NCBI GenBank assembly: GCA_044226865.1
Contig: JBGAGE010000012.1
Location: 63,523-127,522 of the forward strand
Direction: 5' to 3'
Length of the DNA: 64,000 nucleotides
Origin: Steroidobacteraceae bacterium
GTDB lineage: Bacteria > Pseudomonadota > Gammaproteobacteria > Steroidobacterales > Steroidobacteraceae
The notes under the pieces were generated by a model, which did no database searches, was not told the DNA's origin, and was given only the letters and a program-made list of their open reading frames with translations. Of the stretch, positions 5,559 to 32,882 are shown in pieces (positions within the stretch are counted from its first letter, which is position 1; the number at the start of each line of letters is the position of its first letter). A program made the position numbers and the translations under genes.

Positions 5559-5562
5559 GCGG

Positions 5563-6906: not shown

Positions 6907-7172
6907 CCTCCACCCGCAAAACTGCGCCCGCCGCTGGAAGCCTCCTTGCTGAAGTAGATGTGATCATCGCTGGCGCTTTGCAGTGGATAGGGATCCAGCT
7001 GCATCGCCTGTTCGGCCATCAAATCGTGCTCCCATGGTTTCGCGCCGACACTGGCACATCCCGACAGCGCGAGCAGCCCCGCGGCGATGCCTGCGCCAGC
7101 AAGTGCACGGCGGGATATCGATCGAAGTTCAGGGTGCCTTTTCGGCAAGCAGCGTTCGCAGATGCGCTTCAT
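6891..7172 (-). CDS. DUF4266-type small lipoprotein
   Basis: AGLLALSGCAS lipobox and the characteristic C-terminus GGGCGCN. The start is uncertain: ATG at 7172 or TTG at 7148. With the ATG start it overlaps the upstream TlpA-like gene by 44 nt and the downstream DUF3570 gene by 16 nt. Confidence 0.65.
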   Translation of the reverse strand: MKRICERCLPKRHPELRSISRRALAGAGIAAGLLALSGCASVGAKPWEHDLMAEQAMQLDPYPLQSASDDHIYFSKEASSGGRSFAGGGCGCN

Positions 7173-7578
7173 ACTCTTCTTCCTTCTTGACCGAGAAACC
7201 ATCATGGTGGAACCGCACGTGACCGGTGCGATCGATGAGCACGGCGCTGGGCATGCCCTTGATCTTGAAGCTCGATGCGATGTCCCCTTTGGGGTCGTAG
7301 ATGACCGGAAAATTCGCGGGGAAATCGTTGAGAAAGCGCTGCGCATGCTCGCGGTCCTGGTCGAGATTCACCGCAACGACGACAAAGCTGTCGGCAGCAT
7401 TTCGCGACTGAATGTCAGCGAGCCAGGGAAAGGATTGGCGGCATGGGCCGCACCATGAAGCCCAGAAATCCAGGTAAACGACTTTGCCGCGATACTGGGA
7501 TAGATCGAGATTCGTGGGCCATGCAGAACCGAAGGCGGTGATGCCCATGATGATGAATACGACACGAATCATTTGCAT
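7129..7578 (-). CDS. TlpA-like periplasmic thiol:disulfide oxidoreductase
   Basis: WASWCGPC active site in a thioredoxin fold. N-terminal membrane anchor MQMIRVVFIIMGITAFG. Start set to an internal ATG of the 332-aa ORF. Confidence 0.85.
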   Translation of the reverse strand: MQMIRVVFIIMGITAFGSAWPTNLDLSQYRGKVVYLDFWASWCGPCRQSFPWLADIQSRNAADSFVVVAVNLDQDREHAQRFLNDFPANFPVIYDPKGDIASSFKIKGMPSAVLIDRTGHVRFHHDGFSVKKEEEYEAHLRTLLAEKAP

Positions 7579-7820
7579 CGGCGATGTGGCTTCGGAGAAG
7601 ATCGTGGTTGGAATTTCACGTGCTGCGATGTGACCGTCGGCTTTTGTATTGGTTGCAAAAATTTTCGGGCAAGTTTTGTCAAGGTGTGATTCGACGGCAG
7701 GTTGCCGGTGGATCAATCGCTCATTCGATGATTGCGGAGACGAAGTTGACTGCTGAGATCCATGCATACGACGTCCGTTCGACATACTTGAAGCGCCGAT
7801 TCCACGGGAGTGTGCTTCGA

Positions 7821-8747
7821 ATGTCGTGTGTGCTATTTCTCGCGATCGCGGTGTTGATGGCAACGTCCTGTAGAGCCGCTGACATCCGCTTGCCGGGGAC
7901 CCGCGCGTTCCCGGAGAGCATCGCCGCCGGCGCCGGTGGCGCCCTCTACGTTTCCAATTTCGCGGATGGCGGCATCGTTCGCATCGAGGGAGGTCACGCC
8001 GAGTCTTGGATTCACCCCGGCGCTTTCGGCAGCGGCGCGATTCTGGGCCTGCTGGTGCAACTTTCCCGGGGGCTGCTGTGGGCGTGTTCGAACGATCTGT
8101 CCGCGATACACCTGGCCAAATCCGCATCGGGGCGCAGCGAGTTGCTGGCGTTCGACCTGCGCTCCGGCCATGGCGTGCGTAGTTTGCCCATGCCGGACGA
8201 TCGAGGTGATTGCGCGGATATCGCCGCCGCGCCGGACGGCAGTCTGCTGATCACCGATGGCCGGTCGTCGCGTGTCCTGCGGCTAGCGCCCAAGGGACTC
8301 GCCCTGCAGGTGTTGTTGGACGATCCAAAGCTGCGCGATGCTCCCTATGGGCTCGACGGCATCGCGATCGCGCGCGATGGCACGGCCTACGTCAACTCGT
8401 ACTCCAGCGGGAAGCTGTTTCGCATCACCTTCGAGCGTGGCGGCGTTCCTGCCATCGACGAAATCGTCCTGGACCGGCCGCTGGTCAAGCCGGATGGCAT
8501 GCGAGTGGAAGGCCGGCATTCATTGTTGGTGACCGACGCGGCGGGGTTGAGTCGGGTCACGTTTCTCGCAGGCTCGCGCGGTGTGGTGACGACCGTCAGG
8601 GCGGGCCTGGCAGAACCCACTTCACTCGTCATCCAGGGTAAGAATGCCTTCGTGACCGAGGGCAAGGTTAGCTGCGCATTGCAGCCGGATACCTGCCGGA
8701 CCGACGCGTTCGAATTCTTCGTTCGCGTCGTCGACTTGAAGAATTGA
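7821..8747 (+). CDS. secreted beta-propeller protein (SMP-30/gluconolactonase/LRE-like)
   Basis: Signal peptide MSCVLFLAIAVLMATSCRA. Repeated DG..YV / DG.LLVTD blade-like motifs. Start set to an internal ATG at 7821. Confidence 0.6.
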   Translation: MSCVLFLAIAVLMATSCRAADIRLPGTRAFPESIAAGAGGALYVSNFADGGIVRIEGGHAESWIHPGAFGSGAILGLLVQLSRGLLWACSNDLSAIHLAKSASGRSELLAFDLRSGHGVRSLPMPDDRGDCADIAAAPDGSLLITDGRSSRVLRLAPKGLALQVLLDDPKLRDAPYGLDGIAIARDGTAYVNSYSSGKLFRITFERGGVPAIDEIVLDRPLVKPDGMRVEGRHSLLVTDAAGLSRVTFLAGSRGVVTTVRAGLAEPTSLVIQGKNAFVTEGKVSCALQPDTCRTDAFEFFVRVVDLKN

Positions 8748-8926
8748 AGCGGGACGTGCGATCCCCGATACATCTGGAAGCGTGGTCCCAAGGCGCGCCA
8801 GGGCAGTGTGTACTTCGTCAACCCCCGGATTTTCGCATGTGGAGACTGCCGAAGTCGGTTGCCTGCTGCTTGTGACGCAGGGAGAAGACCGGAAGGGTTG
8901 GATGTGAAGCCCCCTGGCGCGTGTCC

Positions 8927-10756
8927 TCAATGAGTGCGGGCCCGGCCCGCTTGCAGCACCCGCAGGGCATTCTCCCGCACCGTGCCCAGCGGCAATGCGC
9001 CGTGAGAGATCATTTCCCGATTGAATGCCTTGATGTCGAAGCCGGCGCCCAGCTTGTGGGATAGTTCCTGCCGCAGCGAGGAAAACTCGTTGAATCCCGC
9101 GCCGTAGCACAATGCCTGGCCCGGCAGGTCGGCGGAATAGCGCAGGATGTCGGAATCGATTTCCACGTCGGACGCAAAGGTGTTTTCCTTCATCCATTGC
9201 CGCGCCTGATCATAGGTCCAATCTAAGTAGTTGAGGCCTGTGTCGACGATCAAGCGACCAAACGTCATCGCATTCAACATCAGCCGGCCGAGCTTGGCGT
9301 AGTCGTCCGGATAGGCGTTCATGTCGATGGCCAGGTTGGAGGCATACTCTGCCCAACCTTCGTTGAAGGCGCCGAACGCCGCGGTGGTGCGACGAAAATC
9401 CGGCAGCGAGGCGTTCTCCTGCTGCATCGCCACGTGGAAGTGATGGCCGGGGATCAATTCATGGAAGATGAGGGCGCAGGCGCTGATCATGGGGCGGTGC
9501 GGCAGGTCGCTGACGTTGTATCGATACTCGCCGTACGGATTGCTGGCATCTGGAGGTTGGTAGTATCCGAACGTCATGCCGCTCTGCTCGGCCGGCAAGG
9601 GAACGGCGCGATAGCGTGCTTTGGGAGTGAGCGTGAAATAGCGCGGCAATGCGGATTCCATCCCTCGCAGGCATTCCTGATAACGCCGATTGACATCTTC
9701 GGGTGAGGAGGCGACGAAGCGCGGGTCGGTCCGAATACGCTCCCGCAACTGCTGCCGGGAGGGCGCGAGTTGGAGACGCGTCAGCAACTGCTCGATTGCC
9801 CTGTTGTTCTGCTCCACCAACCGTTCGCCCAACGCCCGCAACTGTTCCGGCGACCGGTCCAACGTCGTATGCCGCTTCGCGAGCATGCGGTAATAGTCCT
9901 TGCCGCCGGGGTAACGCCCCATCCCACCTTGCTCTGGCGCCGCCGCCAGATAGCTGGCGTCCAATACTCCGAGCAACGCATCGATCCCCCGTCCTGTCCG
10001 CTCGATGTTCGCCTGCAAGGCGGCACGAAAGGCCTGCCGGGAGGCCTCGTCCAATCCTGTCAGCCGCGAATCGGGGATATCGCCCCAGTGCGACGATGCC
10101 TGGCGAAACCCGTTCGCAGCGGCGACGGCTCGCGGCACCTGCGGCTTGGGCATGTAAACGCCCCGTGCGATTTGACTGCGGGTGCGTTCGACGACAGCCT
10201 CGATCCGCGCCGCCGCGTCTGCGGTGAGACTCAAGACGGCGGAACGGTCCTTCTCCGTCTGCAGCGGGTTGGACGCGAGCGCATCGCTGATGTAGTTGAG
10301 GTCGAAATAGCTGTACGGCGCCGGAAAGCTGAACGGGTAGTCCTGCGTTGCGGTGGCGGCATCTTTCAGCAACCAGCGAAGGCTGTCGTAGGTGAGCAGG
10401 TCCTCACCGTGCAGCGCGGAACGGGGAAGAGCTTCCAGGTCGGACAACAGGCGGGTTGAAAAAGCTGCTTCGCCGGCCAGGTCGGCTGCACTCAACGATG
10501 GGAGATGCGCGGCCACTTTTCGAAGCCCCGTGGCGGCGAATATGTCGCGATCGATCAGGTGGTCGCTGTAGCGCTGTGCGATCCTGGAAAGCGATTCATG
10601 CGCGTCCTTTGTGTCGGTCACGGTTGCCGTTGGAGCGGCGAGAACGGGGCAAGCCAGGGCCGCGGCTGCAGCAACCAGGACGAAAAGCCGGACCGCGCGT
10701 CTCGTCAGCCCGCTGAATGCACTGAAGCGATGCACGATATTCATTGGAATCGGCAT
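8927..10756 (-). CDS. DUF885 family protein (metallopeptidase-like)
   Basis: HELIPGHHFH motif characteristic of DUF885. Signal peptide. GGGAGAGAG purine run upstream of the chosen ATG at 10756. Confidence 0.8.
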   Translation of the reverse strand: MPIPMNIVHRFSAFSGLTRRAVRLFVLVAAAAALACPVLAAPTATVTDTKDAHESLSRIAQRYSDHLIDRDIFAATGLRKVAAHLPSLSAADLAGEAAFSTRLLSDLEALPRSALHGEDLLTYDSLRWLLKDAATATQDYPFSFPAPYSYFDLNYISDALASNPLQTEKDRSAVLSLTADAAARIEAVVERTRSQIARGVYMPKPQVPRAVAAANGFRQASSHWGDIPDSRLTGLDEASRQAFRAALQANIERTGRGIDALLGVLDASYLAAAPEQGGMGRYPGGKDYYRMLAKRHTTLDRSPEQLRALGERLVEQNNRAIEQLLTRLQLAPSRQQLRERIRTDPRFVASSPEDVNRRYQECLRGMESALPRYFTLTPKARYRAVPLPAEQSGMTFGYYQPPDASNPYGEYRYNVSDLPHRPMISACALIFHELIPGHHFHVAMQQENASLPDFRRTTAAFGAFNEGWAEYASNLAIDMNAYPDDYAKLGRLMLNAMTFGRLIVDTGLNYLDWTYDQARQWMKENTFASDVEIDSDILRYSADLPGQALCYGAGFNEFSSLRQELSHKLGAGFDIKAFNREMISHGALPLGTVRENALRVLQAGRARTH

Positions 10757-10858
10757 TGGAACTCTCTCCCGCGTCACCTCGTACAATCTTATCCGAGCTG
10801 ATGGCGTCAATGCGCGCCAATCAACCGGTCCGCACGCCAGGCGCATGCCCTCGGCAGT

Positions 10859-13222
10859 TCACGAGTACAGGTCCAACTGCTGCTGTTCACCGGTGAGTTT
10901 GTCGAAATCAAGCCCCAGCGCGTTCAGAACCGGCTCTGCGACGGGCTTCACCTGCTTCTGAACGTAGTGCTCGCGGTCCAAGGCGTGTGTGACGTTGTCG
11001 AGGGGTTCTGCGCCGGCGATGGTCATCACATAGCTGATCAATGAACCTTCGCTCTGCGAGGATTTTCGCGCGGCGGCCACGTGCGGTGGCGTGGTCGCCG
11101 TGTACTCGGTGACCTCCTTGCGAAGGTTCTTGCGATAGACGAGCAGCGAGTCGCACTCGCCGGCTCTCACCTGGCGAACGATGCCGGAGATGTAGTCATC
11201 GACGTTGCGGTCGCTGAACAACCGCTCATACAATTCCCGTTGCACTTGCCGCGCCAAGGCTGTCCAGTCGCGGCGAACGACTTCCATCCCGACGAATTCC
11301 ACTCGCTCGCCGACGGCACTGCGCACCAGCCCGACATAGCGTTTGCTGGCGCCGCGGGTGCTATGGCGTGCGCTCGGCAGGAACAGGCGCAGGTACAGCT
11401 TTTCGAATTTCAATTCCAGGCGGCTGGTTCTTTGCCAGCGCTCGAGGATGTGGCGCGCCAGATCCTCGGTGAGCCGAGATGCCAATTCGGCGCCTCGAGC
11501 CTGGGCGGCATCGGCGGAGGAATCCTGCGATTGCACGAACAAGCTATCCGTATCGCCGTACAGCACGCTGAAGCCGGCCGCCTCGAACCAGGTCTTCGAC
11601 CAGAGCAACAGCTCCCGTCCGGTGCCCGTGATGGCGTTGGCCAATGCCGGGTTGAAGAACCGGCAAGCGGGGGTACCCAAGACGCCATAGAACGAATTCA
11701 TCAGGATCTTGATGGCCTGCGAGGCGATGGTGTCGCCCGAGAGACGGGCCGCCTCGCGTTGCGGGAACAAGGTATCGAGCAATTGCGGCAGGATGCCGGG
11801 ATCGCGCCGGAACGCGGCCGCGGGCGTGTGGATCAGGTCGGCATGCGCGTCCGGTGCATCCACGTAGGTGAGCGGATCGATGTTGAAGGTGCGGATGATG
11901 CTGGGATACAGGCTTTTGAAATCAAAGACCCAGACGTGGCGATACAGCCCGGGGCGCGATTCCAATACGTGGCCGCCTTGCTGGGTGACCGGCGCCCTTT
12001 CTTCATCGCCCACACTGGGGGCGACCACTTTGCGGCGCCAAAGCTCTTGCAGGTACAAGAAATCGAAGGAGGCAATGCTGGCGGCGACACGGTCTGGCGT
12101 CATGCCGGTGAGCTGGCTGCGAGCCATGGCCAGCGGGATCAGGCGGAGCCGGTCGAGAATCTGCCAGGCCAGGCGGGCATCGGTGCGGGCATAGAGCGCA
12201 AAGGCCGGCAGGTCGTGCGCGTAGTTGTGCAGGATCTCGCCGATGCGGTCGCGCACCGGCCCCACCACCGCTTTGCCCTCGCCCAACACGGCATGGGCGA
12301 CAGCGTCCAACGAATATTCCTCCATGCGGACGAAGGCGCCGCGCAGCAGGTCGATGCCGTCGAGGACCACGCGTCCCGGAATGCTCGCCTGACCGCTGCC
12401 GAAGTAACCGCGTGCCGGGCGGATCTGCAAAGCGCCATCATCACGCCCAAGTGGCAGCGGGTGGCGGACACGTGCGGCAATGCGCTGCAGAACGGTCAGG
12501 TCGAAATCGATGACGTTCCATCCGGTGAGTACGTCCGGGTCGAAGCCCTCGACTCGCTCGCACAACGCGCTGAGTGCGGCGTACTCGCTCTCGCAGCGGG
12601 TGGCACGATCGGGCATGGCCCGGCCATCCGGGCCCACGATCAGCACCTCGTCGATACCGGGTGCGTTGAGCGAGATGGCCAGCAGTCGTTGGGCGTTGGC
12701 GTCGGTCTCGATGTCGAATGACAGGACGCGCAGCGTGGGTGTCACCGCTGCCGGAGTGAGCTGCGGGTTGAGGAAGAGCTTGTCGATTCCGATGCCGGGC
12801 GCAGAGATGCCGTCTATTTCCACGCCGCCCTTGATGCCGCGCTCGATCAGGTAGCGGGTGGCGAAGCGGACATCCGCCTCGAAGGTGTCGATGCCCGCGG
12901 CGTGGAGGCGATCGCGGATCGCCGGTACCTCCGGTGGCGTTGCAACTTCGATGGCGCAGACGGGATTGCCGGCGAAATCGCGCAGGTCCGTGGGAAGCGG
13001 GTCGGGGATCTTGTGCGCGCGTGCCTTGCCGGCGTCTGCACAGCGAATGAAGAAGCGCGGCCGCTGTCGGTCGTCCCGGATAAGGAATGTCTCTCCGCTC
13101 TCCAGCCTGCCATACAGGTGGACGACCGGACGGCGCAGGCCCTCCCGGTCCGACTGGATCCGGTAACTGGCCTGGAGGATGAAGCCGCGTTCGCCCGTCA
13201 TCCGCCCAGTGTGCCTGATCAA
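10859..13222 (-). CDS. polB: DNA polymerase II (family B)
   Basis: 787 aa. Exo I motif SFDIETD, motif A DFKSLYPSII, motif B KILMNSFYGVLG and motif C YGDTDSLFV. Confidence 0.95.
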   Translation of the reverse strand: MIRHTGRMTGERGFILQASYRIQSDREGLRRPVVHLYGRLESGETFLIRDDRQRPRFFIRCADAGKARAHKIPDPLPTDLRDFAGNPVCAIEVATPPEVPAIRDRLHAAGIDTFEADVRFATRYLIERGIKGGVEIDGISAPGIGIDKLFLNPQLTPAAVTPTLRVLSFDIETDANAQRLLAISLNAPGIDEVLIVGPDGRAMPDRATRCESEYAALSALCERVEGFDPDVLTGWNVIDFDLTVLQRIAARVRHPLPLGRDDGALQIRPARGYFGSGQASIPGRVVLDGIDLLRGAFVRMEEYSLDAVAHAVLGEGKAVVGPVRDRIGEILHNYAHDLPAFALYARTDARLAWQILDRLRLIPLAMARSQLTGMTPDRVAASIASFDFLYLQELWRRKVVAPSVGDEERAPVTQQGGHVLESRPGLYRHVWVFDFKSLYPSIIRTFNIDPLTYVDAPDAHADLIHTPAAAFRRDPGILPQLLDTLFPQREAARLSGDTIASQAIKILMNSFYGVLGTPACRFFNPALANAITGTGRELLLWSKTWFEAAGFSVLYGDTDSLFVQSQDSSADAAQARGAELASRLTEDLARHILERWQRTSRLELKFEKLYLRLFLPSARHSTRGASKRYVGLVRSAVGERVEFVGMEVVRRDWTALARQVQRELYERLFSDRNVDDYISGIVRQVRAGECDSLLVYRKNLRKEVTEYTATTPPHVAAARKSSQSEGSLISYVMTIAGAEPLDNVTHALDREHYVQKQVKPVAEPVLNALGLDFDKLTGEQQQLDLYS

Positions 13223-13285
13223 CTGAACGGTGCTTTCTGGCAGCGGGCTACGTCTATGGATGCGGTCGGCGAGGATCGGGGATTG

Positions 13286-13300
13286 TGGTGGCCAGGGAGG
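13286..13300. repeat. distal att-type direct repeat of the tRNA-Phe 3' end
   Basis: tggtggccagggagg is identical to 32807-32821, which is the last 15 nt of the tRNA-Phe including CCA, on the minus strand. GC content drops immediately to its right. Confidence 0.7.
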
Positions 13301-13559
13301 CCCTCACACTAAATCGATTGAGAGCCATTTTGCCGAGGAAAATGTCCATTTTTTGATCGAAAAACGACCCCCAGAGTTACCCCAGTCACACAAAACATGG
13401 TGCTGTGTCCGGGGTGCGGTTCCCGTTACGCAGTCGACGCCTTGGTCGAACCTCTCCGAACCCAAGACTGGACGCTTGTATAACACCAAAGATTTGGATG
13501 ACGACGAGCGCAGGACACGCCGCCTCTGGATCTTTTCCTCTCAAGATCAACCCATTCGA

Positions 13560-14459
13560 CTAATCGACTTGGCTCGTCGCACGCGACAATTGATTCGAAA
13601 GCCGTTGGGCGGCTCCGGGCTGAAATTGCCTTATATATGAAATTCGACCTGTCAAGCTATTAATCAATTTGCCGCGCTTAACGGGATCTTCAATAGCCGC
13701 AAGTGTATGAATAGCTGCGCGAACATTGTCGCGGTACTGGCGCGGAACCGTAGGGCAGCCGCTGTTGACGTTGAGGCCGGTTATTCGTTGCGGCTTCGAT
13801 TTGGGTCGAATCTTTAGCTTCTCGCCGCGGTGAATTGACAACCCCCGCGACGACAGTCGCCGCGCGACATCCCCAATGAGCGCCACGGGATTGTCGCCTG
13901 AAAGTGCAATATCATCGACGAAACGCGTGAACCTCGTTTTCGTGTTCTCCGCTTGCAGTCGCGTTGGCAAATCGACCGCGCGTGCCAAAACCAGGTTTGC
14001 AATGACACCACTGGTCGGAGCGCCTTGTGGCAGCAGTCCATTGCGCGTTGTCAATTTTGTTAGCAGGCTCGCAACCGGCGTGCTATAGCCAAATTCTCGC
14101 AACGTGCAGAACACCGCTCGATGATCGACGCTATCATAGAAACTCTTGACATCGACCGTTACCAGCACACGTGCTCCGAGGTGCTTCTCGGCGTTGGTTC
14201 TGGGTGACCGACCAGAAACACCACCCTGGACTTCGGGGCCGAATGCATCCTCTCCAAGAATGCGCTTCTTTATTAAACGCTGAATAATTTTGAGTTCTTT
14301 GTTCGGATTTCGAAATATTCGAACTTGAGTTTTACTTGCATCCTTCCATTTTGTGAACTCGTGGTAGTTGGCGGCGGGCGCATCGGCAATCTTGCGGAGG
14401 CGGTCTAGCGGCACTCCAATAGTCCAAGCAAGATCCCGTAAAGAGGTGATAACTTTCAT
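13560..14459 (-). CDS. retron-type reverse transcriptase
   Basis: 299 aa. Collinear retron RT motifs: RIFRNPNKELKIIQ, NAEKHLGARVLVTVDVKSFYDS, LLPQGAPTSGVIANL, FTRFVDDIALSG (the YxDD box as FVDD), QRITGLNVN (equivalent to the retron VTG motif) and YRDNVRAAIH. By eye it aligns along its full length to the Ec86 RT as I remember it. Confidence 0.9.
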   Translation of the reverse strand: MKVITSLRDLAWTIGVPLDRLRKIADAPAANYHEFTKWKDASKTQVRIFRNPNKELKIIQRLIKKRILGEDAFGPEVQGGVSGRSPRTNAEKHLGARVLVTVDVKSFYDSVDHRAVFCTLREFGYSTPVASLLTKLTTRNGLLPQGAPTSGVIANLVLARAVDLPTRLQAENTKTRFTRFVDDIALSGDNPVALIGDVARRLSSRGLSIHRGEKLKIRPKSKPQRITGLNVNSGCPTVPRQYRDNVRAAIHTLAAIEDPVKRGKLINSLTGRISYIRQFQPGAAQRLSNQLSRATSQVD

Positions 14460-14782
14460 CCCGCTTTTCTCACACCTGAAGCAGACGTACCGGACAGATC
14501 AGGTACCAGCAATTTCAATAGCACCTGCGCTGCTTCAGCGATCTCGCGATTAGACTTGCCACCTATCTCATCGCGATTTGCTGCCAGCAGATCCACAAGC
14601 TCCACAGGTATTTTGGTTGCTTTGGCCAGGGATTCGACGACAGTTCGCGTAGCATTACGCTTGCCCGACTCGATCAACGAAAGCTGGCTCACCGAAATAG
14701 ACATACGCGCGGTCAATTCGGACTGCTTAAGTCCGAATGCCGCGCGAATGATCCTAAACGCCCTTGCGTAATCCGATTTCAT
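14456..14782 (-). CDS. XRE/Cro-C1 family helix-turn-helix protein (retron accessory candidate)
   Basis: 108 aa. GLKQSELTARMSISVSQLSLIESGKRNAT is a canonical HTH_3 motif. Its stop overlaps the RT start codon (ATGA, 14456-14459). Confidence 0.85.
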   Translation of the reverse strand: MKSDYARAFRIIRAAFGLKQSELTARMSISVSQLSLIESGKRNATRTVVESLAKATKIPVELVDLLAANRDEIGGKSNREIAEAAQVLLKLLVPDLSGTSASGVRKAG

Positions 14783-14817
14783 TGGAATTCAAGCCGCTCT
14801 AACACTAGTTTGCGTAA

Positions 14818-15018
14818 TCACATACGGTTCTGAAGAACCCGGCAAATCACCTGGACCAATCGAAACAGCTTTCGCCGCTGGATTTTTCCAGACCGCGCCA
14901 TCGCTCTCAGTTCCTGCTTTGCTGTACGCAATCGATCACTGTCGTCAGGCTCAAGTCTCGGGTCGTTGAGCACATTGGTTATCAGCCGCAGCGCCCGTTT
15001 CGCATCTTCATTTCTCAC
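14818..15018 (-). CDS. small hypothetical protein (66 aa, predicted helical, Arg/Lys-rich)
   Basis: GTG start preceded by GGAGAGAG with 5-nt spacing. Sits 35 nt upstream of the HTH gene on the same strand. No family recognised. Confidence 0.4.
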   Translation of the reverse strand: MRNEDAKRALRLITNVLNDPRLEPDDSDRLRTAKQELRAMARSGKIQRRKLFRLVQVICRVLQNRM

Positions 15019-15062
15019 AGTCTCTCTCCGGTAAGGGGACGTATTGCCCCGTGCGCGTAGAG

Positions 15063-15294
15063 CACGTCCTCGGAGAAAGGCCCGAGCTGGCCAAGCGGCC
15101 CGAATCTAGTGCGCATCCAGGAATGCGCCCTAAGCCATCACTGTCGCTGCGCCACTCGTCGTGTCCGCGCCGCGCTGCGTCTGCAATGGTCTACGTGCCA
15201 TTAGGCACGCGGCGCGCACGGAAACCGTGCGCACCATCAGCGGTGTTAATCCACCGATTCAGCGCGAGCAGAACCCGCGCCGCTTGAGGACGTG
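15063..15294 (-). ncRNA. candidate retron msr-msd non-coding RNA
   Basis: 9-bp inverted repeats cacgtcctc (15063-15071) and gaggacgtg (15286-15294) flank five or more stem-loops. On the minus strand, AAGC follows the 5' repeat. The stem-loops include GCGCGGG/CUCGCGC, CGGUG/CACCG, GCGCACGG-UUU-CCGUGCGC (15214-15232), CGUGCC-UAAU-GGCACG (15194-15209), a 55-nt imperfect hairpin (15135-15189) and GCGCAU/AUGCGC (15111-15128). Confidence 0.3.
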
Positions 15295-15351
15295 TTAACG
15301 ACTGCGAGATATTAAAGAGCGAGTCCGCCGGAATCCGACGGCCTAGCGCGC

Positions 15352-15380
15352 ACAATATTGAAACGTGACGGCCTTGTCAA
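15352..15380 (-). promoter_or_regulatory. sigma70-like promoter reading into the retron locus
   Basis: The minus strand reads TTGACA (15380-15375), a 17-nt spacer, then TATTGT (15357-15352). This lies about 55 nt upstream of the proposed a1 repeat. Confidence 0.4.
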
Positions 15381-15572
15381 ATGGTTTGACATGCCCGAAA
15401 CCCAACGTGACGCGGAGGTCTCCGGTTCCGGAGCTTGACTCAAGGGCACAGGCAGCCAGAGCATCAGGGATAACCGCTGAGCTCGGCCAAAACCAGACGG
15501 CGCGAATACCGGATTGCTAGGCGGCAAGCAGACATCCGTTGTGCGCTAGACTTCACTCTACAGGAGCGCAAT

Positions 15573-16280
15573 GTGAAGGCAATTCAGGTTGTATCTTGGA
15601 TGCTTGCAGTCACGATTTCTCTAAGTCAGGCGCAGGCTTCGCCATCATCGCATTCAGCCTTGCCGCCAGATACGGTGAGCGATCTGCGATCCGTTCTGAA
15701 GACTCTGTGGCCCGCGCTCCATTATGGCGAGACAGTGGGACGCATCTATTTTCAAACCGCCTGCCAGCCCAGCGACGACCTCCGCCGGTCGTTTCCTAAG
15801 CTGGATGTCCATCGGCCGAGCAAAGGAAAGGCGGGTGTCGAAGCAATTCGAGAAATGTTTAGAACGGAGCGCAATGCCGCTGTTACGGAGCCGCAACCCG
15901 GCGTAGTTAGCATAAAGATTGGAGCGGTTCCTGACGCCATTCTGAAAACTCGGATTCCCCACCTCAGCCTTAATCCCGAGGAACAGTACAATATTTGGCT
16001 CGCAATCGAGGCCATTCAAGACTCACCCGAAGTGCGATCCATGATGCGTCGACTTGCAATAGGCATTCCGGCAACCCCAATGAACATCCAAATTAGGGAG
16101 CCAATTGCAGGACAACCGCATCTTCCTGAGTCGATCGACAACGCTACGTTTGATCAGGCTCTCAACATTGTCGCGAGAGCTTTTAGGGGCGTTGTCATCT
16201 ATCGCTTTTGCACCGCGCCGGCTCAATTCGAAATTGACTTCGCCGACGCTCGCGGTATTTACGCAGATACACTGCAGTGA
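15573..16280 (+). CDS. secreted hypothetical protein
   Basis: 235 aa. GTG start 6 nt after CAGGAG. Signal peptide MKAIQVVSWMLAVTISLSQAQA. Low GC. No family recognised. Confidence 0.55.
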   Translation: MKAIQVVSWMLAVTISLSQAQASPSSHSALPPDTVSDLRSVLKTLWPALHYGETVGRIYFQTACQPSDDLRRSFPKLDVHRPSKGKAGVEAIREMFRTERNAAVTEPQPGVVSIKIGAVPDAILKTRIPHLSLNPEEQYNIWLAIEAIQDSPEVRSMMRRLAIGIPATPMNIQIREPIAGQPHLPESIDNATFDQALNIVARAFRGVVIYRFCTAPAQFEIDFADARGIYADTLQ

Positions 16281-16384
16281 GTTGGCAGTTCTGATGCTTG
16301 ATAGCGGACGCCATTATTTGGCGGCTGCGGGTCAGCTTTTTCCTTTCGCGGTCGCTGGCAGAACTCGACGTGTTAAATTTGCCC

Positions 16385-16441
16385 GAATGACGGCTCCCGG
16401 GGCGAGAATCGGGCTCTGACCGGCCACTTTGAGACATTCGG
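16385..16441 (+). repeat. 57-nt intergenic repeat, copy A
   Basis: Ungapped alignment to 19188-19243 gives about 74% identity, with collinear identical blocks gaatgac, agaatcgg and ccggccacttt. Confidence 0.5.
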
Positions 16442-16570
16442 CAAGGGGAAAGGGCCGCCCGAAAGCAGACATGCCAGTCTTGCGCTACGATTCTGGGAAG
16501 CGAAGCGAGAGGATAATTCGATGGCAGCAGCTATGCCCTACTTCCGTCGGCTAATAAATTGCTAGAGCGC

Positions 16571-17083
16571 ATGACTAAGCGAGTTATTGCCGTCGTGAGT
16601 ATTGCGTGCGCTGTGATCGTGCCAATCAGCCTATTCGTTCTATTTGCGCTGCTTGGTCAGCGCCTGAATGCGACGCTTCGATTTCATGAATTGCTATTGG
16701 TAACCGGCATCGAATTTCTTATCTTCAATATTCCCGCTCTCATCTTAGGTTTGCCCGCCGTTCTTTTACTCAGAAAGTTCGCGTGCCTTCGCTGGTGGTC
16801 GCTATGTGCGGTAGTCTTTGCCTCAGGAGCCATATGCGCGGGGTCCAGCATATATTTCTCTCTTTTTGACTCCAGCAATGCCGCGGCACATTTCTGGGAC
16901 AGCGCAACGGTGGTATCGCAATATGGCGTCCCGACTCGTGATGGCTGGCTATTTCTGATCCGCCGAAGCAGTTTCATAGGGGCTGTCGGCGCGCTTACTG
17001 CCATGTGTGGCTGGACTGCGTGGACGGTTCTACTGCGCTTTAGCAGTCGGTTGGAGCAACGTGTCTCGAATCCGGGAAGATGA
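16571..17083 (+). CDS. hypothetical integral membrane protein (about 4 TM segments)
   Basis: Hydrophobic segments VIAVVSIACAVIVPISLFVLFALL, LLVTGIEFLIFNIPALILGLPAVLLL, WWSLCAVVFASGAICAG and FIGAVGALTAMCGWTAW. ATG at 16571 chosen over TTG at 16559. Confidence 0.5.
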   Translation: MTKRVIAVVSIACAVIVPISLFVLFALLGQRLNATLRFHELLLVTGIEFLIFNIPALILGLPAVLLLRKFACLRWWSLCAVVFASGAICAGSSIYFSLFDSSNAAAHFWDSATVVSQYGVPTRDGWLFLIRRSSFIGAVGALTAMCGWTAWTVLLRFSSRLEQRVSNPGR

Positions 17084-17248
17084 TTGCCGTAAAGCCGTCG
17101 CTGACGAACGGCAGCAACGGGTCAACACCGAATATCACCCGCGAAATCGCCTAGCTACGGCGAATACCGCCCCGACTCCCAAAGCTTCTGCTGTGGCGTA
17201 TAGAAATCCACGCTGCAATGCCGTTCGGCGGTTCGCTGCAACTGCTTG

Positions 17249-17713
17249 TTAGACGGCGCCCGCGACACGCTGTAAATGCTCCCTCACAGACGGCAACAGA
17301 AACAGCAGCGCTGGTTTGCGGTTACCACTACGCAAGATACCCTCGTACGTTAATAGGTCGTTTGTCAAAGGGCTGACGAAAACTCGAAAGAGCTCATCTA
17401 GCTTCGCCGCGCGAGTCGCGTCGTTGAGTGGGCTGTCGAGATCGAGGACCGCAGAAAACTCCGGCGGCTCCCGCCGAAAGACGTGCCCCAAATCCGTAGC
17501 GGGCAGGTCATCCACTGAATACGTGCGATTGTTCATACCTTGTATCCAGGCCTTGACGTTCAGGTAGTACTGCCTACCCCCGTAACCTGATCGCTGTAGC
17601 TCGAGGCCGACGATCGTCTCCGCGCCAACCCGAAACCACATCGCCTTCAGTCGAGCAAAGCCACAGCCCTGTGCGAGAGCATCAACCGTTTTGCGAAACG
17701 CTACTGTGTCCAT
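17249..17713 (-). CDS. DUF4304-like protein
   Basis: MDTVAFRKTVDALAQGCGFARLKAMWFRVGAETIVGLELQRSGYGGRQYYLNVKAWIQG matches the DUF4304 pattern as I remember it. Start set to an internal ATG of the 206-aa ORF. Confidence 0.5.
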   Translation of the reverse strand: MDTVAFRKTVDALAQGCGFARLKAMWFRVGAETIVGLELQRSGYGGRQYYLNVKAWIQGMNNRTYSVDDLPATDLGHVFRREPPEFSAVLDLDSPLNDATRAAKLDELFRVFVSPLTNDLLTYEGILRSGNRKPALLFLLPSVREHLQRVAGAV

Positions 17714-18064
17714 CGGCTTGCGGTAAGTGCCAATTGGTCCCGACTTACGCCCTATTGGACGCCCAGGGTGACGTGAAGAAATACGCAGAAAATGTCGAAT
17801 AATGTTACTATGAACGGGTCCTCCGTAAGCAAGCAGGCGCAGTACAGCACCAGCCACGCTTTTGGTCAAATCGTCTGCCCGAAAGCTGTCGTTCCCGTAG
17901 GTCTGCTGTGGGTCAAATTCGGCCGGCAGCGGTTCCAGACCACCCCAGCGGGAGCTAATACGTCAGAGACGCTCCGGCACATTGTTAGAATACCGTCCTT
18001 AAAGCGGTCGCCGGGAAAATGGACGCCGCGGTGAATTACGAAGGAGTTGGCCAGGAGGCAAGCC

Positions 18065-19051
18065 TTGCCGAGACCCAGCCCTAGGAAGCTTATTGCGCTG
18101 TTGGTGATCGTCTCTCTCGCGATCGGAATCACTGTTGCGAACTATTTTCGTCAGCCAAAAGCAACGATCGTACCGCTTACCGTGCGATCCAACTCTGCGA
18201 GGTCAGCGGACTCAGCGTCGAACCCAGTAAATCTATCGACTAATGGGAAGGATTTGAATGACTCGGGCAAGTCCTTCCGGGCCGCCTTTCGCCAAGCCAG
18301 TGATTACCACGAGTTTGTTGGTGGAATAAGGCATTCGGCCGATGCCGGCGACCCAGTCGCAGAATTTTTAGTCGCAAAGGCATTGAGATATTGCGCGGAC
18401 AACTTGCGGATGTTTTTGGCTATAGACGGCACTCGAAGAACCTTAGATGAGGTTCAAGTCCGAATGGCGCAAATTCCTGGCGCCTTTGAGCGGTCGAATG
18501 AAGTATACCGTCACTGTCATACGTACCTCGAAAACCCTGCGTTGGCGCCCCTCACTGCCGACTGGAAGCGATGGCTCGACTCGGCCGCCACCGCCGGGTA
18601 CCCGCCAGCTATTACGGAAAAGGCGGATGTCATGCGCGTGGCGGACTTGATGAAGGATGCGGCCGGTGCCGACGCGGGTGATGTAATTCCGCCTACCGAA
18701 GGGCCGGCACGGGAGTTGGCGCTAGCAGCTGTGAAATCAGGCGACCCGGACTCCATCCTTGGAATGGTCAATTGGGTTGACGGCACGAAGCGAAACGGCG
18801 AAGCCAATTTCGATTTGGAAAGCGCCTGGGAACTGCTGGCATGCCGACGCGGCTATGACGATTGTGGCGCTAATTCCGAACTCGTTCGAAGCGTCTGCAT
18901 GTTCGACGCACAGTGTCAAAACGATGCGGGAGTCATAGAGTCTTTGCGGCGGCGGTTGGGCAATCGATTTGACGATGTCGACCGACTGGCCACCGAGATT
19001 GGCGTGGCTGTTGATTCGGGAAGTTCAAAGGCAATTGAGGCCTTCCTTTAG
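18065..19051 (+). CDS. membrane-anchored hypothetical protein
   Basis: TTG at 18065 sits 6 nt after AGGAGG. N-terminal anchor KLIALLVIVSLAIGITVANYF. The remainder is a helical soluble domain with no recognised family. The ORF track starts it at 18047. Confidence 0.55.
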   Translation: MPRPSPRKLIALLVIVSLAIGITVANYFRQPKATIVPLTVRSNSARSADSASNPVNLSTNGKDLNDSGKSFRAAFRQASDYHEFVGGIRHSADAGDPVAEFLVAKALRYCADNLRMFLAIDGTRRTLDEVQVRMAQIPGAFERSNEVYRHCHTYLENPALAPLTADWKRWLDSAATAGYPPAITEKADVMRVADLMKDAAGADAGDVIPPTEGPARELALAAVKSGDPDSILGMVNWVDGTKRNGEANFDLESAWELLACRRGYDDCGANSELVRSVCMFDAQCQNDAGVIESLRRRLGNRFDDVDRLATEIGVAVDSGSSKAIEAFL

Positions 19052-19187
19052 AGTCTCCGCTTTACCCGGTATTACGTGGTGCTTGTTCGAAATGAGGGCG
19101 CCGAAAGCGGTCGTTCATCAACGGCAGCTCTGGGTCAGGTTTCCCCGTTGGCGGGCATCGGCTAAATTGCCAATGTTAAATTCCGGG

Positions 19188-19243
19188 GAATGACCGGTCC
19201 GGAGCGGAGAATCGGCCAGCAGCCGGCCACTTTCAGACGTTGG
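19188..19243 (+). repeat. 57-nt intergenic repeat, copy B
   Basis: See copy A (16385-16441). Same orientation, lying between the 18065-19051 gene and anmK. Confidence 0.5.
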
Positions 19244-19331
19244 ACATCGGAATTGGCTCGCCTGTAAGCTGCCATCGGAAAATCCATTTACATAAAGAGC
19301 ACAGCGGACCTCGGTGCGGCGAGAATAGGCA

Positions 19332-20447
19332 ATGGACGACGTTGGCTTGTTACGAGCTATAGGGCTCATGAGCGGTACATCGATGGACGGCATCGATGCG
19401 GCGATCATTGAGACAGACGGAGATCTAAACCTTAGAACCGGCGCGTACTCAAACACTCCATATCCGCGCGATCTTCGCCGCGCCCTCCTACGCTTGACGG
19501 CGGAAGTCGTCGAAACCTCGGCATTCGAACGGGAAGTAACAGATTTGCATTGCCAAGCGGTTCTTACGCTGTGTGGAAATGCCGGAGTCGACTTGTCTGA
19601 CATCGACGTGATCGGCTTCCATGGGCAGACGATTGCGCACCAACCGGAATATGCACGAACTCGGCAGCTCGGGGATGGTCAGCGTATGGCGGACGCTCTC
19701 GGAACGCTGGTTGTGAATCGGTTTCGGCAGAATGACTTGGAACACGGTGGCCAGGGCGCCCCGATGATTCCGGCATTTCACCGAGCACTGGTCCTATCGT
19801 CCAAGTTGCCCCAGCCGGTTGGAATATTGAATATCGGAGGTGTGTCGAATGTAACGCTGGTCGATCAAGAGTTGCTCTACGCGTGCGATTGCGGGCCCGG
19901 AAATGCTTTAATCGATGATTGGGTGGATGCGCGCTGCGGCATCCCATACGACGATGGCGGAGAGCTTGCGGCTAAAGGCCGTATCGATCAAACAGCTCTG
20001 ACTTCACTGCTTGATGCCGAATATTTCCGGCGTCAGGGGCCAAAGTCATTGGATCGCAATGCGTTCTCAACAAAGGTCGTAGAGGCGTTATCCCCACAGG
20101 ATGGAGCTGCCACGCTTGCCGCATTCACGGCCGCCGCAATCGCCGCCGAGTCACGCAAATTGCCCGTTTCGCCCAATGAATGGATCGTGGTTGGCGGGGG
20201 AAGGCTTAATCGTTACCTACTCGCCCAACTCAGAACTCGGCTCGGTGCACCTGTACGGGTTGCTGAAGAACTCGGATGGGCGGGAAGCGCTGTAGAAGCT
20301 CAGGGCTTCGGATACTTGGCCGTTCGCTCGCTCAAAAATCTCCCGTTGAGCTGGCCCAGTACAACAGGAGTTCACGCGCCAGTGACCGGGGGCGTAGTTT
20401 GGGGGCCGGCGAAAGAAACGAGACCATTGGCGCGTTCGCTGATTTGA
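19332..20447 (+). CDS. anmK: anhydro-N-acetylmuramic acid kinase
   Basis: 371 aa. N-terminal GLMSGTSMDGIDAA motif and overall AnmK-like layout. Confidence 0.9.
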   Translation: MDDVGLLRAIGLMSGTSMDGIDAAIIETDGDLNLRTGAYSNTPYPRDLRRALLRLTAEVVETSAFEREVTDLHCQAVLTLCGNAGVDLSDIDVIGFHGQTIAHQPEYARTRQLGDGQRMADALGTLVVNRFRQNDLEHGGQGAPMIPAFHRALVLSSKLPQPVGILNIGGVSNVTLVDQELLYACDCGPGNALIDDWVDARCGIPYDDGGELAAKGRIDQTALTSLLDAEYFRRQGPKSLDRNAFSTKVVEALSPQDGAATLAAFTAAAIAAESRKLPVSPNEWIVVGGGRLNRYLLAQLRTRLGAPVRVAEELGWAGSAVEAQGFGYLAVRSLKNLPLSWPSTTGVHAPVTGGVVWGPAKETRPLARSLI

Positions 20448-20560
20448 ATGGAGTTGACCCGCTTTCGTGGACGGTTAGTTATCTAAGCTCTCACTGCGGG
20501 AATAGGACTCCGCGGTTAACGTGCTCGTTTCCTGTGCCATACTGAGGCAATAGCTTCGGG

Positions 20561-21505
20561 GTGGATATGTCGATGGTGTCTTGGCTAGGTCCTGGCAAAG
20601 GCATTGGAGTGCTCGGCGGCAAGGTGGCCGTCGTCACGGGCGCGGCCAACGGGATCGGCCGAGCCTTGGCCACGGCCCTGTGGGCGAAAGGCTGTCATGT
20701 AGCCGCGGTCGACCTCGACTGTGACGGCCTGGGAAACCTTCAGAAAGAACTAGCGGACAAAGGCCGAGGCCAACGGTTGACGACGCACTGCGCAGATGTC
20801 GCCGACCGTGAACGCATGAAGCGTCTTGCTCCGGAGGTAGTGGAGGCGCATGGCGCCGTCCACTTGCTTATCAACAACGCGGGCATCGGCCACGAAGCCG
20901 CATTTCCGCAGACGAGCCTCAAGGACTGGGACCACATCGTCGGCGTGAACCTCTGGGGCGTGATACACGGCTGCCACTTCTTCATGCCGTACCTTGCCAA
21001 GGCCGAGCGCGCGCACATCGTGAACCTTTCGAGCCTGTTTGGTATCGTCGGCATGCCGGGCCAGACGGCGTACAGCGCCACAAAGTTCGCAGTGCGCGGT
21101 TTCTCCGAAGCGCTGTTTGAGGAGCTACGCGCGACGTCTATCGGACTGACGGTCGTTCACCCGGGCGCGGTCGCGACCAACATAATAGAAGCCACGAAAG
21201 GTGACGACCACGATCTCCTCCAACGCATCTCGCGCTGGTACGAGCGCAATGCAATGCGACCGGAAAAAGCGGCCGCCCTCATCGTCCACGCGGTGGAAAA
21301 GGGAACGCCGCGACTGCTCGTCGCTGCGGAATCCTATTTCGGCGATTTCCTCCGGCGCCTGATGCCGGCAGCAGGCAACAAGATGTTCGTCGACGCGGCG
21401 ATCCGCTTGCTGTCCGTGGAGGACTTGCGGGCGAAGCGCAGCAAGCAGTGGCGAGAGACGATGGTGGAGGGCGGGCCGGGCGACTCGCACCAGCGCGACA
21501 TTTGA
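20561..21505 (+). CDS. short-chain dehydrogenase/reductase
   Basis: TGAANGIGRA cofactor motif, NNAGI, and the catalytic YSATK (YxxxK). Confidence 0.85.
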   Translation: MDMSMVSWLGPGKGIGVLGGKVAVVTGAANGIGRALATALWAKGCHVAAVDLDCDGLGNLQKELADKGRGQRLTTHCADVADRERMKRLAPEVVEAHGAVHLLINNAGIGHEAAFPQTSLKDWDHIVGVNLWGVIHGCHFFMPYLAKAERAHIVNLSSLFGIVGMPGQTAYSATKFAVRGFSEALFEELRATSIGLTVVHPGAVATNIIEATKGDDHDLLQRISRWYERNAMRPEKAAALIVHAVEKGTPRLLVAAESYFGDFLRRLMPAAGNKMFVDAAIRLLSVEDLRAKRSKQWRETMVEGGPGDSHQRDI

Positions 21506-23043
21506 TGATGAAGCCTGATACGGAAGTCCTCATCGTTGGCGCCGGCGTCAGTGGTATTGGGGTAGGAATCGAATTGTGTCGACGCAGGCACACGTCATTT
21601 ACGCTGCTCGAAAGGGCGGGTGAGTTGGGTGGCACCTGGCGCGACAACATTTATCCGGGCATCGCCGTCGATCTTCCGTCGGTCGCGTATTGCTACCCGT
21701 TCGAAACCGACTACCCCTGGTCGAGGGTGTTTGCTTCCGGTGCGGAGGTTCAGGGCTACATCCGGCACTGCGCGGAGAAATACCGCGTCACCGGGAATAT
21801 TCGGTTCAACTCGAAGGTAGTTCGATCCCGGTTTGATCCAGATCGAGCCTTGTGGATGACCCAGCTCGAAGACGGATGCGTCGTCACCTCGCGCTTCGTG
21901 ATCGCGGCGACCGGGCTGTTCAGCACGCCAAAACTGACGGTGATACCGGGACTCGAAACATTTCGCGGAGAGGCGATGCACACGGCCAGGTGGGACCATA
22001 ACCACGACCTGACCTCGAAACGCGTTGCCGTGATTGGTACCGGTGCCTCGGCGGTCCAGGTGGTGCCGGAGATCGCACCGCTGGTCGATCGGCTGTCGGT
22101 GTTCCAGCGAACGCCAATCTGGATTGGACCACGCTTCGATCGGCCGACCACACCAAGAACGCGCCTGTCGCTACGCCGGTTTTCGGCGATTCGAACGCTT
22201 TCGCGCTGGGGGTTCGAGGCTAGCCTTGAGCTTGTCACCTTCTCGCTCGTCAACTTTCGACGGCTGCCGTTCCTGGTTCGCTCGGTTGAGAAGCCCGTTC
22301 GTGCGTGGATGCGCAGGCAGGTCCGCGACCCGAAAACCGCGGACAGGCTGGTTCCTGACTACGGTCTCGGCTGCAAGCGGCCGACAATTTCGAACACGTA
22401 TCTGCAGGCGTTTAATCGCAACAACGTACGACTGGTCACGAAGCCGATCGATCGCATTTGTGCCGCAGGAATCGTCACCACAGACGGTGTGGTGCACGAA
22501 GTGGACACGATTATTCTTGCCACCGGCTTCCTGACGACCGAGCAGGGAACCGGACCGACGTTCGAAGTGATCGGCCGCGACGGCATTGAGCTGGGACAGT
22601 TCTGGGAGAGCCATCGCCTTCAGGCCTACGCGGGAGTCTCGGTGCCCGGATTCCCGAACTTCTTCCTAATCACCGGCCCGTATTCAGGTGGATTCAATTG
22701 GTTCACCACTCTGGCCGGCAATCTCTCGCACATCATGCGATGCCTCGACGAGGCTCGCGCACGCGGTGCCACCCGAATCGAAGTGACTCGAGATGCGCAC
22801 GAACGCTACATGCGCCACACGTGGCAACGCGCCGACGGCACGGTATTCAAGTCGGCGACGTGCGCGTCGGCCAGGAGTTACTACCTGGACCGGCATGGCG
22901 ACGCATCGCTGCCGTTGCCCCACACCCCGTGGTGGCGCGTGGTGCGCGGCCGCTGGCACGGGACGCGCGGCTACAGCTTTGGAATGCCTGAGAACCAGAA
23001 GGATGGCGTTCGCGCAACGAGCGAAGTGGGTGGGGTTACATGA
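21505..23043 (+). CDS. flavin-dependent monooxygenase, Baeyer-Villiger type
   Basis: GAGVSGIG FAD motif, FRGEAMHTARWDHNHD (the BVMO fingerprint FxGxxxHxxxW) and a second Rossmann motif VIGTGASAVQ. Its ATG overlaps the SDR stop (TGATG). Confidence 0.85.
   Translation: MMKPDTEVLIVGAGVSGIGVGIELCRRRHTSFTLLERAGELGGTWRDNIYPGIAVDLPSVAYCYPFETDYPWSRVFASGAEVQGYIRHCAEKYRVTGNIRFNSKVVRSRFDPDRALWMTQLEDGCVVTSRFVIAATGLFSTPKLTVIPGLETFRGEAMHTARWDHNHDLTSKRVAVIGTGASAVQVVPEIAPLVDRLSVFQRTPIWIGPRFDRPTTPRTRLSLRRFSAIRTLSRWGFEASLELVTFSLVNFRRLPFLVRSVEKPVRAWMRRQVRDPKTADRLVPDYGLGCKRPTISNTYLQAFNRNNVRLVTKPIDRICAAGIVTTDGVVHEVDTIILATGFLTTEQGTGPTFEVIGRDGIELGQFWESHRLQAYAGVSVPGFPNFFLITGPYSGGFNWFTTLAGNLSHIMRCLDEARARGATRIEVTRDAHERYMRHTWQRADGTVFKSATCASARSYYLDRHGDASLPLPHTPWWRVVRGRWHGTRGYSFGMPENQKDGVRATSEVGGVT

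Positions 23044-32806: not shown

Positions 32807-32882
<76 letters not shown>

Follow-up and report, generated by a model that had tools for sequence, protein, structure and literature searches.

Positions 15063–15294 of the window (the whole stretch of 64,000 nt that was analysed) very probably form the 5′ structured, msr-msd-like domain of a Type VI retron hybrid RNA. The data support a hybrid RNA of ~560 nt on the minus strand, running from ~15345 to ~14785 and transcribed from a sigma-70-type promoter, with the gene for a small protein (SP) embedded in it. The original prediction had proposed 15063–15294 as a candidate msr-msd; its reading as retron RNA is supported, whereas its limits were too small for the unit. 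That the RNA is reverse transcribed, which guanosine serves as the branch point and where the msd ends are presumed by analogy with characterized retrons. All features below lie on the minus strand unless stated otherwise.

The operon is ordered structured RNA, SP, HTH and reverse transcriptase (RT). The RT (299 aa, 13560–14459; Pfam RVT_1) has RT_VI as its best PADLOC match (198 bits, E = 3.9e-59, profile positions 6–277 of 279), with the next PADLOC families at about 1e-51. Retron RTs are marked by NAxxH and VTG motifs in addition to the catalytic xxDD, and the 299-aa protein carries these hallmarks as NAEKH (residues 89–93), ITG (226–228) and FVDD (180–183), together with an LPQGAPTS motif. 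Residues N89, H93, T227, G228, D182 and D183 are invariant across 33 RT homologues; with the catalytic residues so conserved, a template for the enzyme must exist. Upstream of the RT, a Cro/C1-type HTH protein of 108 aa (14456–14782; Pfam HTH_31 and HTH_3) is encoded; its stop codon and the start of the RT gene share 4 nt, and its best PADLOC match is HTH_VI (E = 1.8e-16). Type VI retrons, bacterial anti-phage systems described between 2020 and 2026, combine an RT of the Type VI group, a small Cro/C1-type HTH protein (91–110 aa) directly upstream of or overlapping it, and, further upstream, an SP that folds as a helical bundle (Mestre et al. 2020, PMC7736814). All three are found here, namely the RT group, the size and position of the HTH protein, and a helical-bundle SP upstream of the HTH gene. 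Judged by sequence, the operon is a Type VI retron.

The SP gene (14818–15018, with a GTG start at 15018–15016) lies within the RNA and encodes 66 aa. Ten loci preserve its reading frame and length, variation is greatest at third codon positions (45 variable columns versus 34 and 27), and SP homologues are present in 18/18 loci examined. AlphaFold2 models SP as a three-helix bundle (pLDDT 88), in keeping with what Mestre et al. 2020 (PMC7736814) reported for accessory proteins of Type VI retrons. Judging from Retron-Vpa2 and Retron-Sen3, SP is a candidate toxin that the HTH protein would restrain, and the system would protect against phage.

Within the structured stretch, CACGTCCTC at 15294–15286 is followed by AAGC, the G of which is position 15283, and the exact complement of this repeat, GAGGACGTG, is found at 15071–15063. 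Both the inverted repeat and the AAGC are thus present as originally described, on the strand of the RT operon. At least six stems had been claimed between the repeats, and the computed fold contains six hairpins. Among them are the 8-bp hairpin GCGCACGG/CCGUGCGC that had been pointed out (15235–15211) and the 55-nt imperfect hairpin that had been placed at 15135–15189, which folds as 15191–15134.

The 9-bp repeat had been regarded as unconvincing alone, and this caution is borne out. In 5000 shuffles of the 331-nt region, 548 (11%) also held a perfect inverted repeat of 9 bp whose arms were separated by 100 nt or more, so the repeat by itself is not significant. This frequency, together with a GC content of 63%, is what could be said for the repeat and hairpins having arisen by chance in GC-rich intergenic DNA. 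However, the 232-nt stretch folds at -128.8 kcal/mol, in comparison with -99.2 ± 4.3 kcal/mol for dinucleotide shuffles (z = -6.9), and further evidence against chance comes from related loci.

A protein search with the RT gave 211 relatives at E ≤ 1e-20; among the best 120 of these, about 35 are 62–79% identical, nearly all of them metagenomic. Scans of a genome collection, with the single RT protein and then with an alignment, returned RTs of ≤46% identity only, and tblastn with the RT against plasmids returned only other retron types at ~33% identity. Eleven loci with RT identities of 56–79% were compared, as well as distant ones at 42–46%. The order of non-coding stretch, SP ORF, HTH and RT is constant in related loci wherever upstream DNA is present. 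The flanking genes vary among loci and include RadC, T5orf172, PLD and resolvase genes, among others. Several related cassettes adjoin defence-type or mobile genes, namely MazE-PIN, cpYpsA, T5orf172, PLD-like and resolvase (L165:2464–3742, L166:1–520, L170:1–484), and such neighbours are compatible with life in defence islands.

RNAalifold, run on ten close sequences over 15346–15016, predicted 14 helices. In the unfitted 10-sequence MAFFT alignment, changes on both sides occur in 17 pairs versus 5.9 in shuffles, and 95.9% of cells are paired versus 30–45% with the partners slid. A covariance model built from the 10-sequence alignment matches 21 sources over its full length: the window itself plus 20 other loci (16 distinct sequences, 15 when the window is left aside). 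Scores reach up to 370 bits and are 68–133 bits at loci with RTs 42–46% identical; the model has no match at L001 and L017, despite the SP-HTH-RT genes there (RTs 41–43% identical). In the 16-locus alignment (RTs 42–79% identical), which was fitted to the covariance model and is thereby biased towards pairing, though in the same direction as the unfitted test, 94.7% of 1537 cells are paired versus 85% in shuffles and 33–44% when slid. In the same fitted alignment, compensatory changes are found in 58 of the 98 predicted pairs versus 24 in shuffles. Conservation and covariation of the stems in orthologous loci, which had been named as a check of the original prediction, are therefore found, the a1/a2 helix included, and they place the finding above chance. 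With the covariance-model matches, the covariation and the IR1–IR2 pairing described below, chance is already refuted as an explanation and keeps a negligible probability.

The 5′ end of the RNA is occupied by a stem-loop (helix 1, 15323–15343) with compensatory changes in 4 of 9 pairs and pairing in 95% of cells. On its 3′ side, CUCUUU at 15319–15314 is near-invariant, and TCTTT is an invariant run in 16/16 loci. The 5′ strand of helix 2, CGCAGUC (15300–15306), has its partner GACUGUG at 15022–15016, with 6 of 7 pairs compensatory and 97% of cells paired across the 16 loci. Next, the a1 arm CACGUCCUC (15286–15294) pairs with the a2 arm GAGGACGUG (15063–15071); mean column identity in close loci is 0.95 and 0.96, respectively. 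Compensatory changes affect 3 of 9 pairs of the a1/a2 helix across the 16 loci, with 97% of cells paired. This inverted repeat closes the RNA in the manner of a canonical msr-msd. Helix 2 and a1/a2 are both long-range helices, stacked on each other, and they enclose the hairpins SL1–SL6 described below.

In canonical retrons, the a1/a2 stem is immediately followed by the branching G. Here two unpaired A's separate G15283 from a1/a2, in agreement with the earlier caveat that the candidate G is not adjacent to the stem, and G15283 itself is directly 5′ of SL1. The unpaired AAG junction between a1/a2 and SL1 (15283–15285) is invariant in 16/16 loci. By analogy with canonical retrons, G15283 is a candidate for the guanosine whose 2′-OH primes synthesis (the branch guanosine).

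Four conserved msr-like stem-loops with covariation follow at 15193–15282: SL1 (15282–15261), SL2 (15256–15241), SL3 (15235–15211) and SL4 (15210–15193). Compensatory pairs in helices 4–7 number 7/10, 4/5, 7/11 and 3/8, with 94–98% of cells paired. The msd-like region beyond them (15111–15191) consists of SL5 (15191–15134) and SL6 (15128–15111) and is variable, with low identity and insertions. Of all elements, SL5 is the least conserved; its column identity is 0.68 across the 16 loci and 0.78 among the close ones. Insertions fall mainly in the SL6 loop, which carries an extra 38 nt in L176 (~800–850) and 83 nt in L175 (~800–900), with the rest of the RNA kept. Covariation nevertheless persists in the stems of this region, with compensatory changes in 9 of 10 pairs of helix 8 and 5 of 7 of helix 10. 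Taken together, the invariant AAG, the least-conserved SL5 and the SL6-loop insertions give the pattern that would be expected for a conserved msr followed by a variable msd.

Just 5′ of a2, at 15072–15086, the invariant CUCGGGCC is followed by UUUCUCC; CTCGGGCC is an invariant run in 16/16 loci. If a1/a2 is the priming helix, this segment would be the first template copied. Its UUUCUCC (15078–15072) is complementary to the ribosome-binding site, and the UCUCC:GGAGA pairing holds in most close loci without variation but, by column, is not kept in distant loci. CUCGGG (15081–15086), upstream of a2, is also the exact complement of CCCGAG at 14957–14962, within SP codons 19–21 (GAC CCG AGA). Both hexamers lie in the longest runs that are invariant across the 16 RNAs, third codon positions included, which suggests a further long-range contact. 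A local hairpin, GGCC-GCUU-GGCC (15099–15088), was predicted by RNAalifold from the short alignment and was rejected, since it is poorly kept (87.5% paired) and the IR1–IR2 pairing fits better.

Downstream of a2 lies a riboregulator hairpin made of helices 13 and 14 (15062–15026), which together with the 3′ strand of helix 2 after it makes up 15016–15062. The hairpin contains part of the ribosome-binding site GGAGAGAG (15029–15022). Compensatory changes are found in 3 of 5 pairs of helix 13; CGC/GCG, for example, is replaced by CAC/GUG in L166, L168 and L173. The SP start codon (in helix 2) and part of the ribosome-binding site (in helix 13) are thus held within covarying helices. In other words, a structured RNA with terminal inverted repeats stands upstream of SP, and the SP translation signals are sequestered in it. 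That the helices around the start codon covary so strongly speaks for control that is at least partly translational at this locus.

A direct repeat of GCGCACGG occurs at 15232–15225, in the 5′ arm of SL3, and at 15056–15049, in the 5′ arm of the riboregulator. Because of this repeat, the 3′ arm of SL3 could also pair with the riboregulator over 9 bp. The alternative pairing (CCGUGCGCG with CGCGCACGG) shows one compensatory event, in L166, L168 and L173, and is lost in distant loci.

The most strongly covarying helix of the RNA spans the SP gene. IR1 GAUUCGGGCCGCU (15094–15106) pairs at long range with IR2 AGCGGCUUGAAUUC (14785–14798), which is located past the SP stop codon and ahead of the HTH start. 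When the region as far as the HTH gene is aligned with plain MAFFT, 9 of the 13 IR1–IR2 pairs are compensatory, and 96% of cells are paired versus 24–56% with the partner slid. The helix rests on comparative data and is absent from the single-sequence minimum-energy fold of the window. It indicates a transcript that runs through SP and then pairs back, by a post-stop segment, to the 5′ domain. IR1–IR2 cannot nest with a1/a2 and helix 2, so the RNA would be a pseudoknot or a two-state switch, as proposed for Retron-Sen3.

In Retron-Vpa2, a hybrid RNA combines a template domain with a translationally masked small toxin gene; toxicity results when the non-coding part is deleted, and no msDNA can be detected at baseline (Zhang et al., bioRxiv 10.1101/2025.10.22.683967). 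The full Vpa2 DNA is 86 nt, with a long stem-loop and a short 5′ stem-loop of ~23 nt, and the repeats that join the transcript 3′ end to the first arm were likened to a1/a2 (10.1101/2025.10.22.683967). The ncRNA of Retron-Sen3 lies within ~280 nt of the SP start; it is bounded by terminal repeats, its 5′ stem-loop is conserved, and another repeat flanks the SP gene (Garcia-Rodriguez et al., bioRxiv 10.64898/2026.04.27.721009). Vpa2 is controlled at the translational level (10.1101/2025.10.22.683967), Sen3 at the post-translational level (10.64898/2026.04.27.721009). In both preprints, the source of the DNA is the region equivalent to the structured RNA described here.

The burial of the SP start codon and ribosome-binding site in covarying helices would also be accounted for if the RNA were a cis-acting leader or RNA antitoxin that keeps the small toxin, and perhaps also the HTH protein, from being translated, with the RT template located elsewhere. 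The toxicity of the Vpa2 non-coding deletion and the undetectable baseline msDNA of that system are in line with such a role. It is nevertheless very unlikely to be the whole function, given that the catalytic residues of the RT are invariant in the 33 homologues and that the cassette has no other conserved non-coding element in which a template could lie. A conserved 5′ half joined to a variable hairpin with large insertions would be needless for a pure riboregulator, and the equivalent region yields the DNA in Vpa2 and Sen3. A source of msDNA downstream of the RT (13300–13560), which had been named as an alternative that would count against the original prediction, is unsupported, and this candidate ncRNA site was rejected, as homology across loci stops at ~13580. 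The hybrid-RNA stretch is the sole conserved non-coding part of the cassette.

If the stretch is retron RNA, as preferred here, priming need not use a1/a2. Since IR1–IR2 has the strongest covariation of any helix, either it or helix 2 might serve instead, in which case the DNA would start near 15107–15110, beside SL6, and not at 15072. Two features of Vpa2 speak for this variant, in that its a1/a2-like repeats join the transcript 3′ end to the first arm and its 86-nt DNA, with a long and a ~23-nt 5′ stem-loop, resembles SL5 plus SL6. However, no conserved G is found beside IR2, the spacing from IR2 to the HTH ATG differs among loci, and the invariant AAG is located at the a1/a2–SL1 junction. 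Read in canonical order, IR1–IR2 would moreover make the SP coding sequence the template, at odds with the mapping in Vpa2. Priming from one of these other helices is therefore considered unlikely.

The element resembles the canonical msr-msd (Ec86, Mx162; Rfam msr) in several respects: it is closed by a1/a2, a1 has a conserved G within AGC beside it, and conserved 5′ hairpins precede a variable long hairpin before a2. It differs in that the G is two bases from the helix, in that the RNA runs on into coding sequence, and in the lack of an Rfam match. A scan of 12000–17000 against Rfam 15 gave no family match at E up to 10, curated retron RNA families included. In contrast to canonical retrons, the DNA of Type VI retrons is reported to activate the toxin and not to neutralize it.

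Among the closest known systems is the Retron-Sen3/cl2075 lineage. The order ncRNA, SP, HTH and RT is shared, as are an ncRNA within ~280 nt of the SP start, terminal inverted repeats, several stem-loops including a variable long one, and a conserved stem-loop just upstream of the 5′ repeat, here helix 1. SP translation signals in the basal stem, an SP coding sequence under RNA-structure constraint, and a second inverted repeat with one arm in the ncRNA and the other past the SP stop are likewise common to both. Unlike Sen3/cl2075, the lineage described here comes from sludge and soil metagenomes, with one 70%-identical RT (P0024) labelled Terriglobales. The SP is 66 aa long, in contrast to 75–79 aa in the published Type VI clusters. 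IR1 follows SL6 here, whereas in Sen3 it lies in the 3′ part of the long stem-loop. The Sen3 set shows no significant IR1–IR2 covariation, whereas 9 of 13 pairs are compensatory here.

Likeness to Vpa2 lies in the architecture. One transcript holds a template domain and a masked small toxin gene, its 3′ end folds back to pair with the 5′ domain, stems contain both the start codon and the ribosome-binding site, and the HTH and RT genes come next. The GCGCACGG direct repeat may be the counterpart of the conserved direct repeats of Vpa2. The correspondence is loose, as the Vpa2 pair consists of 7-nt repeats in loops, whereas both copies of GCGCACGG are in stems and are not kept in all relatives.

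A TTGACA-17-TATTGT promoter had been claimed upstream and is present at 15380–15352. Its -35 box TTGACA (15380–15375) and -10 box TATTGT (15352–15357), separated by a 17-nt spacer, form the only sigma-70-like site that a promoter scan returned within 13300–15600. TAnnnT at the constant 17-nt spacing is found in 12/12 close loci, and transcription would start at ~15345. The -35 box is overlapped by a palindrome, TGTCAAACCATTTGACA (15375–15391), which is kept in related loci and forms the 5′ edge of the conserved cassette. TGTCAAACC-N-TTTGACA is found in 11/12 close loci, the exception being L177 with AGTCAAACCATTTGACA (AGTC). GTCA-N7-TGAC is kept in 5/6 distant loci, L001 and L017 among them, with GTCC in L086. 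Upstream of the palindrome, the DNA is unrelated from locus to locus. The palindrome over the -35 box looks like a candidate operator of the HTH protein, which probably represses its own promoter through it. Text searches of the Vpa2 and Sen3 preprints returned nothing on operators, palindromes or autoregulation.

That RNA arises from the region, another check named at the outset, is indicated by metatranscriptome contigs. These are 151–360 nt long and all lie within 14792–15330, so that the HTH and RT genes are free of them; they are of low depth and unstranded, and they come from RNA runs that were picked for containing words of this stretch. X21 is labelled RNA, X22, X23 and X24 are guessed to be RNA, and X30 is of unknown type; in all, five contigs are counted, from three runs that carry the RNA label or are guessed to be RNA, plus X23 and the unknown-type X30. 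When X21, X22, X24 and X30 were compared with 5001–25000, only 22–39-nt scraps of unrelated contigs were found elsewhere. The span of the contigs agrees with the predicted RNA and is supporting evidence, not proof. No raw reads of X31–X33 mapped in the sampled ~1% of each run.

If the system works like Vpa2 and Sen3, the hybrid RNA would be bound by the RT and the HTH protein together. The RT would prime on the 2′-OH of the invariant G15283 and copy the template leftwards from 15072 through the variable hairpins, which would yield an ssDNA of roughly 80–150 nt. Upon phage infection, this DNA might accumulate or the HTH protein might be perturbed; the cues in the model systems are phage recombination proteins or inhibition of RecBCD (Vpa2 and Sen3 preprints). 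The RNA would then be remodelled, or its template strand removed, such that the SP start is freed, and the three-helix SP toxin would be made or released and the infected cell stopped.

A more specific proposal is tentative, with a real though minor chance of holding as a whole. It joins a two-state switch, in which the pseudoknotted helix 2, a1/a2 and IR1–IR2 are read in cis, to an RT-driven release of SP and an operator lock by the HTH protein. Starting from G15283, DNA synthesis would run first over 15078–15072, which is complementary to the ribosome-binding site, and next over IR1. Reverse transcription and RNase H would thereby cut the toxin mRNA from the masking 5′ domain, and SP translation would be turned on. 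The HTH protein could act as a second, transcriptional lock via GTCA-N7-TGAC over the -35 box.

Nucleotide homology among loci starts at ~15391–15394, at the palindrome, and ends at ~13580, within the 3′ end of the RT gene. These limits delineate a mobile cassette of ~1.8 kb. Being compact and well bounded, it is convenient for studying how reverse transcription is coupled to toxin release, and the conserved palindrome over the -35 box offers a testable HTH operator. The locus adds a further independent lineage of Type VI retrons, from environmental metagenomes, to a group whose hybrid RNA is known only from preprints of 2025–2026. It leaves knowledge of this kind of system unchanged. The long-range helix linking template domain and toxin gene shows unusually clear covariation, a point on which the published Sen3 set was statistically insufficient.

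An exact 15-nt repeat of the 3′ end of tRNA-Phe is found at 13286–13300 and 32807–32821 of the plus strand and bounds an island of 19.5 kb; the tRNA-Phe gene itself is at 32807–32882 on the minus strand. A family B DNA polymerase gene, polB (10859–13222), was considered as a part of the system and rejected, because it lies just outside the island and is absent from related loci. The retron cassette is located at the distal tip of the 19.5-kb island.
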